Below, piece after piece: positions 15,141-15,664 of a DNA stretch of 64,000 bases. The stretch is taken from contig JAFCDZ010000001.1 of assembly GCA_017609405.1 (NCBI GenBank), forward strand, positions 98,561-162,560, given 5' to 3'. A program made the translations under genes and the position numbers. Under the pieces are notes generated by a model. The model saw only the letters and a list, made by a program, of their open reading frames with translations. It searched no databases and was not told the DNA's origin. Source of the DNA: Candidatus Pacearchaeota archaeon (GTDB taxonomy: Archaea > Nanobdellota > Nanobdellia > Pacearchaeales > GW2011-AR1). Position 1 is the first letter of the stretch; every line of letters starts with the position of its first letter.

Positions 15141-15231
15141 AGCCCCGTAGTACAGCGGTCAAGTATACAGCCCTTTGGTCGAGAGAATCGGAAGATAGGC
15201 TGTGACCCAGGTTCGAATCCTGGCGGGGCTA
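15141..15231 (+). tRNA. tRNA-Gln(UUG) with an 18-nt intron at the canonical 37/38 position
   Basis: Hand fold. Acceptor AGCCCCG/CGGGGCT plus discriminator A; D stem GTAC/GTAT; anticodon stem CAGCC/GGCTG; loop CT-TTG-G[intron 15179-15196]A; T arm CCAGG-TTCGAAT-CCTGG. No encoded CCA. Confidence 0.85.
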
Positions 15232-15240
15232 TATCAATTC
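15214..15240 (+). repeat. direct repeat copy 1 (tRNA-Gln 3' end plus 9 nt of flank)
   Basis: CGAATCCTGGCGGGGCTATATCAATTC. 25 of 27 nt identical to 15402-15428. Confidence 0.8.
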
Positions 15241-15401
15241 TGATTCGAACCTTTAGGTTTGCTTTGACCACGCTTGGGCGAAGCAGGTCGAATATCTTTG
15301 ATATGAGGCCTATTTGGATGCGAACATAGTGAGCAGACGAATTTGATTACGAACGAAGTGAGTAAGCGTATCAGGTCGAGCTTCAGTGCTTAGGTGAGGC
15401 C
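15241..15401 (+). other. GC-enriched 161-bp insert between the tRNA-end repeats (structured RNA or remnant of an integrated element)
   Basis: Visibly more GC-rich than its surroundings. Contains hairpins GACCACGCTT-GGGCG-AAGCAGGTC and ATATC-TTT-GATAT, plus reiterated NCGAAC/GTGAG words (GCGAACATAGTGAGCAG and ACGAACGAAGTGAGTAAG). Confidence 0.4.
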
Positions 15402-15428
15402 CGAATCCTGGCAGGGCTATATTAATTC
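15402..15428 (+). repeat. direct repeat copy 2 (partial tRNA 3'-end copy, att-like)
   Basis: CGAATCCTGGCAGGGCTATATTAATTC. There is no matching 5' acceptor strand, D arm or anticodon arm upstream. Confidence 0.8.
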
Positions 15429-15496
15429 TAAAAAAAGTTCTATTTGCAGAGATTTATAAAATAAGAATCTAAAAAAATTCAACTAAACTATTGAAC

Positions 15497-15664
15497 CTAA
15501 TCAAACATCTCTCTTGGTTTAAGAAAAATGTACAGAACCAATAAAATAAAAACAATTCCGACAGCACCAAGAAGATAAAGATACCACTCTGGAATCCCTC
15601 CACTAAGAGGATTTAAATCAACTTCTGTAAGGTTCCCAAAAAGCACTCCAAAGATTCTATCCAT
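15497..15664 (-). CDS. small membrane protein (55 aa, below the track threshold)
   Basis: Own translation: MDRIFGVLFGNLTEVDLNPLSGGIPEWYLYLLGAVGIVFILLVLYIFLKPREMFD. One clear TM segment. Confidence 0.35.
   Translation of the reverse strand: MDRIFGVLFGNLTEVDLNPLSGGIPEWYLYLLGAVGIVFILLVLYIFLKPREMFD

Follow-up and report, generated by a model that had tools for sequence, protein, structure and literature searches.

A family of small structured elements behind tRNA genes of a Pacearchaeota genome, probably insertion elements specific for tRNA T-loops

What does a GC-rich insert of 161 bp represent when it lies directly behind a tRNA gene and is bracketed by two copies of the 3' end of that gene? 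The question is raised by the tRNA-Gln locus of a Candidatus Pacearchaeota genome (0.74 Mb, 30% G+C, 87% complete; labelled G000), located in a window of 64,000 nucleotides, which is the whole stretch of DNA analysed (C17:98561-162560). An earlier note on this DNA, made from the sequence alone, had offered three answers: the scar of a deleted integrated element, a miniature non-autonomous element that targets tRNA-Gln, or a structured RNA co-transcribed with the tRNA. We consider it probable that the insert represents two units of a family of small (~70-200 nt), non-coding, GC-rich and structured insertion elements specific for tRNA genes, and favour, with a comparable degree of confidence, reading it as an insertion element that is non-autonomous, probably co-transcribed and specific for the T-loop of tRNAs. 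The family is apparently undescribed, as full-text literature searches returned no description of such elements, which is not proof of absence.

The tRNA-Gln insert and its counterparts in the same genome

When the modules of the insert were compared with the whole genome, 37 matches were found, every one of them directly 3' of a tRNA gene and on the tRNA strand. A covariance model (R1) returned 25 units, all located at 18 of the 35 tRNA loci and on the same strand as the tRNA, the first unit beginning -2 to +17 nt from the tRNA end. Seventeen of these loci carry an 18-nt copy of positions 56-73 of their own tRNA with at most one mismatch, the copy of the eighteenth, tRNA-Leu(AAG), has a 1-nt deletion, and tRNA-Leu(TAG) is followed by a solitary 5' arm only. 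The element-free tRNAs include tRNA-Gln(CTG). The cores are 98-100% identical behind unrelated tRNAs: for example, unit 1 at tRNA-Gln equals unit 1 at tRNA-Arg(TCG) (100% over 51 nt), and other pairs of 100%-identical cores are shared by Lys(CTT) and the tRNA at C24:16197, by Ser(GCT) and Lys(TTT), and by Arg(GCG) and Leu(CAA). The number and order of units vary freely among loci, and the modules form a mosaic.

The elements share a general layout, in which the tRNA is followed by a spacer of 0-17 nt, a 5' arm that is the reverse complement of T-arm positions ~51-61, a loop of 2-3 nt, the motif (A/G)GGTT, a T, one to three core units, and finally the copy of positions 56-73. Each core unit consists of a long X hairpin and then a Y hairpin of the form GGTCGA...(T)GAGGCC. 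The core is found at T55^C56 of a duplicated 51-73 segment, with an inverted copy of positions 51-61 in front, and as it formally sits in the duplicated 3' part, the tRNA stays whole. In 17 of 19 loci, the 5'-arm bases opposite T-loop positions 57 and 59 follow the variant of the resident tRNA, and this holds even for loci that share an identical sequence over the adjoining 51-63 nt; Ser(GCT), which has a Lys-type arm, and Ser(TGA), with one mismatch, are the exceptions. A restriction-site explanation of the cut at T55^C56, based on TTCGAA, was dropped because T-loops of the type TTCAAAT are also used.

This census bears on the first of the three answers, according to which a larger, integrase-encoding element once occupied tRNA-Gln and was then mostly deleted. 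The classical footprint left by tyrosine integrases is a direct repeat that begins in the tRNA T-loop and reaches the 3' end, and a T-loop class of attachment (att) sites in this type of integration was reportedly recognized by Williams in 2002 (Nucleic Acids Res 30:866). However, the insert modules are common to 18 different tRNAs, each with its own repeat; a distant second copy of any tRNA 3' end is absent from the genome, and hence so is a large bracketed element; the fold of the insert is conserved and covaries (see below); and 59 pattern matches in viral contigs yielded no real element according to the covariance model. An attL/attR scar is therefore extremely improbable, and this reading can be regarded as effectively refuted. 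The second answer, a miniature non-autonomous element, holds as to the kind of element, but its target has to be widened from tRNA-Gln to the T-loop of tRNA genes generally.

At the tRNA-Gln locus itself, the arrangement described in the earlier note, a tRNA-Gln gene followed by the GC-rich insert, was recovered with all its features in place (Table 1). The gene reaches an Rfam tRNA score of 55.2 bits, and ARAGORN, when searching for introns, reports Gln(ttg) i(39,18), with the intron at the canonical position 37/38; as read from the sequence, the acceptor stem forms 7 of 7 pairs with the 3' strand of the first copy. The direct repeat (15214-15240 and 15402-15428) is identical at 25 of 27 positions, with two mismatches (G15225 versus A15413, and C15235 versus T15423), and no equal match occurred in 100 shuffles of the window; a repeat search extends it to 33 nt with 88% identity (15209-15241 and 15397-15429). 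Similarly, AGGTTCGAATC (15209-15219) in the tRNA is the exact reverse complement of GATTCGAACCT, which forms the 5' arm, where shuffling leads to an expectation of zero. G+C content is 44-50% over 15150-15449 versus 16-30% in both flanks, and the two hairpins named earlier are present in the minimum-free-energy fold. The modules of core unit 2 match other loci at 92-98%, and the second spacer copy either belongs to the duplication or is the beginning of another unit that has been truncated. When ARAGORN is run with its default settings (no introns), the gene is mislabelled as tRNA-Thr(GGT); another intron-containing tRNA, at C24:16197, is labelled Ser(GGA) by the program and looks by eye like tRNA-Met(CAT). 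Intron-containing tRNAs of this Pacearchaeota genome may therefore receive wrong labels in automatic annotation.

Could the insert be part of the tRNA itself, as a giant T-loop intron or within a split or permuted gene whose mature product would join positions 1-55 to the second copy of 56-73? Archaeal tRNAs with introns at non-canonical positions are known, as are Nanoarchaeota with split tRNAs (PMC3491384), a link that the earlier note had also drawn, and in the cloverleaf the first copy could in principle be exchanged for the second. The first copy, however, already yields a complete, high-scoring tRNA, and the tRNA-Gln orthologues work without an insert. The second copy is not the functional one because the G-to-A change at 15413 would put A67 opposite C6 in the acceptor stem, and second copies at other loci carry substitutions or a deletion. 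Moreover, ARAGORN and Rfam both fail to make a tRNA of the second repeat, a possibility that the earlier note had raised against itself, and inspection of the boundaries by eye, with no dedicated program, revealed no bulge-helix-bulge motif. It is highly improbable that the insert belongs to the tRNA.

The insert contains no open reading frame (ORF), and Rfam detected only tRNA, both in the insert region at E values up to 10 and in the whole window at gathering thresholds. Readings of its hairpins as C/D-box, H/ACA, hammerhead or K-turn structures were dropped by eye because the defining motifs are missing. The locus is flanked by genes for a DEAD-box helicase and a methyltransferase-like protein, with no mobile-element neighbours; a 55-aa ORF without Pfam match lies directly downstream of the element array (15497-15664, - strand).

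Table 1. Coordinates, in the window, of the tRNA-Gln gene and of the parts of the element behind it
Feature	Position	Strand	Details
tRNA-Gln(UUG) gene	15141-15231	+	Complete, presumably functional; 18-nt intron at 15179-15196 (position 37/38); no encoded CCA
First copy of tRNA positions 56-73 (T-loop 3' half to discriminator base)	15214-15231	+	Repeat comparison
Spacer s TATCAATTCT between tRNA and element	15232-15241	+	No oligo-T terminator; 9/10 repeated after the second copy
5' arm ('anti-T')	15242-15252	+	Exact reverse complement of tRNA positions 51-61
P2 loop TT, P2 3' strand AGGTT (15255-15259; tRNA positions 51-55), linker T	15253-15260	+	
Core unit 1	15261-15310	+	Covariance-model match 15242-15315 (C17:113802-113875), 46.7 bits, E 4e-10
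Core unit 1, X arm GCTTTGACCACGCTTGGGCGAAGCA	15261-15285	+	
Core unit 1, Y arm GGTC-GA-ATATC-TTT-GATAT-GA-GGCC	15286-15310	+	
Core unit 2	15311-15401	+	Covariance-model match 15317-15408, 37 bits, E 2e-7
Core unit 2, truncated X arm	15311-15341	+	
Core unit 2, complete X arm	15342-15373	+	
Core unit 2, Y arm	15374-15401	+	Family-wide motif GTGAGGCC at its end
Second copy of tRNA positions 56-73 CGAATCCTGGCAGGGCTA	15402-15419	+	First 6 nt form the 3' strand of P1
Second spacer copy TATTAATTCT	15420-15429	+	

Two side observations concern other tRNA loci of this genome. A piece of ~60 nt, AT-rich (ATGTTTATAACAAGACTAAAATCAAAGATTTTGTCAATGTCGATTTAAGAAATCGCCAT), lies within the Y-arm loop of three elements, those of Ser(TGA), Leu(TAA) and Leu(CAA) (approximate sites G000:C10:29273-29330, C17:85130-85190 and C20:4385-4440), and looks like a nested insertion or an expansion module. 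In addition, Thr(TGT), Glu(TTC), Glu(CTC) and Arg(TCT) carry short inserts of a different sort, which lie between copies of the tRNA 3' end that are shorter than those described above (sites L007 2786-2930, that is G000:C17:95709-95850; G000:C20:82543; C22:189; C21:14490). Their repeats start at ~63 for Thr(TGT), at ~64 for Glu(TTC) and Glu(CTC), and at ~68 for Arg(TCT), where the repeat includes 15 nt of flank. As these inserts lack both the anti-T arm and the GAGGCC motif, insertions at tRNA ends are of at least one more kind.

A covarying fold and its probable transcription

A DNA search of 40 relatives found no similarity beyond the genus, so that a pattern search and the covariance model were needed to follow the element further. 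A first alignment combined 7 single-unit elements of this genome with 6 from other genera (13 in all); on it, RNAalifold finds the X and Y arms, with compensatory changes at 12 of 18 predicted pairs. Two further helices close the structure: P1, in which the first 6 nt of the 5' arm pair with positions 56-61 of the second copy (15402-15407 at tRNA-Gln), and P2, in which the last 5 nt of the arm pair with 15255-15259. With these helices the element adopts a four-way junction, and in the 13-element alignment 87.5% of cells pair, versus 19-53% in slid controls. In the alignment of 38 distinct sequences that the covariance model found in other genera, standard pairs fill 93.7% of the pair cells versus 17-57% in slid controls, the former value being somewhat inflated since this alignment was fitted to the model; double (compensatory) changes occur at 20 of 26 pairs. 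P1 covaries with the T-loop variants (one pair is UA 23 times, AU 9 and GC once; another is UA 18 times, CG 14 and AU once), and P2 likewise covaries across genomes.

On which strand is this fold selected? Non-Watson-Crick cells comprise 97 G.U versus 14 A.C, so that the fold is under selection on the tRNA-sense strand, either as RNA or as single-stranded DNA. For the element behind tRNA-Gln, the sense RNA is predicted to fold at -56 kcal/mol and the antisense RNA at -39.8 kcal/mol; the folding z-score of this single sequence is unremarkable (-1.3). The Y arm stacks on P1 as a T-arm does on an acceptor stem, giving a cloverleaf-like shape, and the tRNA covariance model does not detect the element. 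The Y-arm motif GGUCGA...GUGAGGCC is conserved across genera, and the loops of the X arm are not. A constant G is found in the arm opposite G53 in several other genera, which looks like a legacy of the element and not like a copy of the target. Closure of P1 and P2 rebuilds a duplex copy of the target site within the four-way junction.

The context of the elements suggests that they are transcribed together with the tRNA. A run of at least four T within 15 nt follows 10 of 17 tRNAs without an element, 1 of 18 that bear one, and 6 of the 18 second copies. As the element separates the tRNA from its apparent original terminator, read-through from the tRNA promoter is expected: the element would be transcribed from this promoter, and a cut by tRNase Z at position 73 would then free the tRNA. 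An analogous situation is documented for Nanoarchaeum equitans, in which dicistronic precursors of tRNA and small RNA (sRNA) are cut by RNase Z (PMC3491384). Judging from the sequence context, the element is thus probably co-transcribed with its tRNA. The third answer of the earlier note is therefore compatible with what was found, and partly supported by it: a covarying fold specific to the sense strand and the lack of an oligo-T terminator both fit a structured RNA transcribed with the tRNA. The split-tRNA arrangements invoked along with that answer find no counterpart here, the tRNA being complete without the insert.

Distribution among relatives and possible modes of movement

The covariance model matches 19 of 151 genera of the same family, with one to eight copies each, versus 25 in this genome. 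A strict end motif, TGAGGCCCRADTCC, is present in 17 copies in this genome; other genomes of the order have 0-2 each, with matches in 10 of 300, two of these ten being located inside a tRNA-Val gene and not representing elements. In other genera, elements lie from a few nt to ~100 nt 3' of a tRNA on the same strand; the tRNAs that bear them differ from genome to genome, and elements are more alike within one genome than at the same tRNA across genomes. Of 17 loci of other genera, 15 have C56 as the exact left edge of the direct repeat, and the right edge ranges from 73+1 to 73+29; at the majority of loci, the duplication stops at position 73 or shortly beyond it, leaving the spacer in single copy, so that both edges coincide with landmarks of tRNA structure. 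Pattern matches in general genome contigs are mostly chance matches in GC-rich bacteria; four archaeal matches were tested with the model, and only three proved real, all of them in DPANN metagenome-assembled genomes (Nanoarchaeota and Pacearchaeota). A metagenome scan with the neighbouring helicase returned one relative (41% identity), with no tRNA nearby.

At tRNA-Gln itself, no element is present behind the orthologues of 29 other genera, and in G325 and G076, for example, an AT-rich flank follows the gene directly. The earlier note had seen a possible objection in relatives that would keep the same arrangement around an unconserved insert; what was found are relatives devoid of the insert at tRNA-Gln, and structurally conserved copies at other tRNAs. 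A filled and an empty site can be compared in genus g89 at a syntenic tRNA-Ser(TGA), which bears the element in G191 and lacks both element and second copy in G171, with a downstream gene that aligns.

Is the element nevertheless of benefit to its host? It may be a co-transcribed, tRNA-shaped small RNA that is released by tRNase Z (possibly with RNase P), its spread being secondary, and it might serve as a processing or stability element, as a protein-binding scaffold, or as a decoy. The strong covariation specific to the sense strand, the many G.U pairs, the Y-arm motif kept across genera, and the succession of tRNA and element without a terminator between them would all be accounted for, as would second copies of 56-73 that are almost perfect and elements that persist at half of the tRNAs in a strongly reduced genome; the N. 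equitans precursors (PMC3491384) offer a precedent. Yet the family occurs in so few genera, with copy numbers from 1 to 25, its carrier tRNAs differ between genomes, and tRNA-Gln is free of it in the 29 genera mentioned above. The variable number and order of the units and their mosaic modules do not fit a host RNA either, nor do X-arm loops that are not conserved between genera, and the elements show no match to an Rfam family and no C/D or H/ACA boxes. We therefore hold a primary host function for unlikely.

Another possibility is that the arrangement arose locally, by slippage or template switching at the palindromic T-arm, the modules being spread by gene conversion only. The succession of forward, inverted and forward T-arm copies (51-61, its reverse complement, then 51-55 plus 56-61) resembles the product of fold-back template switching, the modules are mosaic, no transposase was found, and perfect tandem duplication of whole units occurs. 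The latter is illustrated by locus L058 (1477-1675; G324, behind tRNA-Ser(TGA)), in which a 92-nt unit made of positions 56-73, spacer and element is perfectly duplicated, giving three copies of the tRNA 3' end, either through very recent unequal recombination or through a second insertion. Slippage, however, does not create a conserved, covarying core over many genera, nor does it explain why the insertion is always at the same phosphodiester, T55^C56. An anti-T-loop-T-arm hairpin devoid of a core, moreover, was seen in only 2 of 151 genomes, both of which have the core at another position. A purely local origin is thus very improbable.

Those hairpins touch on a sister family, in which a core of several hairpins comes after a perfect anti-T-loop-T-arm hairpin (for example GTTCGAACCG-CAA-CGGTTCGAATC). 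Here the arm and the T-arm are contiguous, the core comes after position 61/62, and a copy of 62/63-73 follows. It is found at L117 1436-1595 (G378) and at L116 1351-1585 (G368), with two tandem elements behind tRNA-Gln(TTG) in G368. The comparison of both families indicates that the hairpin is constant while the position of the core differs.

If the elements are insertions, what could move them? In this genome (87% complete, as said), no match to RVT_1, Y1_Tnp, IS110 or TnpB was found, although positive controls worked. Reverse transcriptase (RT; PF00078) is missing from this genome and from 6 of 7 other element-bearing genomes, and is present in two element-free genomes, so that an RT-dependent route, like that of short interspersed nuclear elements (SINEs), is without support here. 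The only recombinases detected are about four matches to tyrosine recombinases. A second Xer-like paralogue occurs in 3 of 8 element-bearing versus 0 of 7 element-free genomes, a difference too weak to use; in this genome it is located at G000:C17:164843-165351 (132 bits), ~2.3 kb past the end of the window and not linked to elements, with a trailing separate fragment match and a possible frameshift; another Xer-like recombinase of this genome lies at C6:7020-7499, and further recombinase fragments lie on C27 and C30.

Taken together, these observations suggest that the element is non-autonomous and that an enzyme provided in trans would move or copy it. Speculative candidates, and in our estimate unlikely ones, are the Xer-like tyrosine recombinases, which would act on a folded single strand, as at the attC sites of integrons: P1 and P2 of the folded sense strand would mimic a duplex T-arm site for recombination, and the product would be resolved by replication. 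Arrays may then grow, harmlessly, by insertion of further cores or by recombination at the pseudo-T-loop. A bolder proposal, which we advance only tentatively, is that of a pairing-guided class of mobile elements, in which the 5' arm would pair with the 3' half of the T-loop and place the core at T55^C56. The duplication of 56-73 would regenerate the tRNA, the arm would be re-templated from the new target, and host enzymes of tRNA processing, repair or the Xer type would act instead of an own transposase. Such re-templating would explain why identical cores come with tRNA-specific arms; either the arm takes its sequence anew from the target when the element inserts, or cores are swapped between old insertions by gene conversion.

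Several points weigh against an insertion element. No mobilising enzyme was identified in this genome (at its 87% completeness), and tyrosine recombinases occur in element-free relatives too. No polymorphism between filled and empty sites was seen within a species at tRNA-Gln, for which no congeneric genome is at hand, and the empty site of G171 may represent a loss since a weak anti-T-like stretch persists in its flank. An arm that follows the T-loop variants of its resident tRNA is not accounted for by any standard scheme of transposition, and the identical cores could stem from gene conversion among old insertions, not from recent transposition. Finally, second copies are nearly undecayed in many genera, so that they may be selected, which would point to a host function.

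If an insertion element is nonetheless what these sequences represent, tiny DPANN genomes carry an undescribed parasite or passenger of tRNA transcription units, which in this case occupies half of the tRNA genes and has broken none of them. An element whose insertion point is defined by tRNA structure and which encodes no enzyme could reveal a new form of structure- or pairing-guided DNA insertion, and may bear on the origin of non-canonical tRNA introns and disrupted archaeal tRNA genes; that the mechanism is categorically new is a real prospect, though not the likelier one. In practical terms, duplicated 3' ends and GC-rich inserts of this kind can be mistaken for att scars, pseudo-tRNAs or assembly errors.

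Comparison with known systems

With integrative elements that use tRNA genes as att sites (those of tyrosine integrases, and tycheposon satellites), the element shares anchoring in the T-loop, preservation of the tRNA, and a repeat that extends from T-loop to 3' end. Unlike them, it has neither an integrase nor, at 161 bp, any coding capacity, and adds an inverted T-arm copy and a covarying four-way junction; moreover, while an attP carries one fixed tRNA fragment, 18 different tRNAs are occupied by this family, and the 56-73 repeat is specific to each of them. The E. coli tyrT locus, with repeat units of 178 bp that each contain the last 19 nt of tRNA-Tyr, is alike in having copies of a tRNA 3' end downstream, but is a tandem array at a single locus and not a dispersed family with a conserved fold.

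MITEs (miniature inverted-repeat transposable elements), repetitive extragenic palindromes and bacterial interspersed mosaic elements (REP/BIME) are similarly short, non-coding, multi-copy, rich in hairpins, modular or mosaic, and divided into genome-specific subfamilies. In contrast to MITEs, the present element has no terminal inverted repeats of its own, the sole end-to-end one following the resident tRNA, and where the MITE duplication is short and of fixed length, the duplication here is at least 18 nt, with its left edge at C56 and its right edge from 73+1 to 73+29. It is also never found away from tRNA genes, unlike MITEs and REP/BIME, and has no matching transposase or RAYT (Y1) gene: Y1_Tnp, IS110 and TnpB, as possible cognate transposases, have no match in this genome, in a search that did not include DDE families. 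The omega-RNA of IS200/IS605 elements, which joins a scaffold to a 3' guide taken from the flank, requires TnpB or IscB; TnpB (PF07282) is missing from this genome and was found in just 2 of 10 element-bearing genomes, and IscB was not searched for.

The attC sites of integrons would be alike in their fold, selected on one strand and, according to the model, rebuilding a duplex site, and the only recombinases of this genome are tyrosine recombinases; they differ in that the element has no cassette ORF and no attI or IntI context, and targets a tRNA gene. tRNA-derived SINEs, the TRE elements of Dictyostelium and Ty3 are also linked to tRNAs, and are comparable in being cloverleaf-like, non-autonomous, multi-copy and associated with target duplications of variable length, but they insert at a distance, whereas the element described here lies inside the T-loop frame, with no RT in its own genome, no A-rich tail and no detectable similarity to the tRNA model.

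Dicistronic genes for a tRNA and a small RNA, as in N. equitans, offer the same layout, namely a structured RNA gene 3' of a tRNA, with a probably shared promoter and release by tRNase Z, and plant tRNA-snoRNA genes are a further example of such pairs. The aligned units nevertheless contain no C/D or H/ACA boxes and no variable guide, and the duplicated tRNA 3' end and anti-T arm, present behind many tRNAs, set the element apart from these genes. It fails defining features of each of these systems, and comes closest to T-loop-class tRNA integration in its outcome, to MITEs and REP/BIME in its lifestyle, to attC in the folding of a strand, and to dicistronic tRNA-sRNA genes in its layout.

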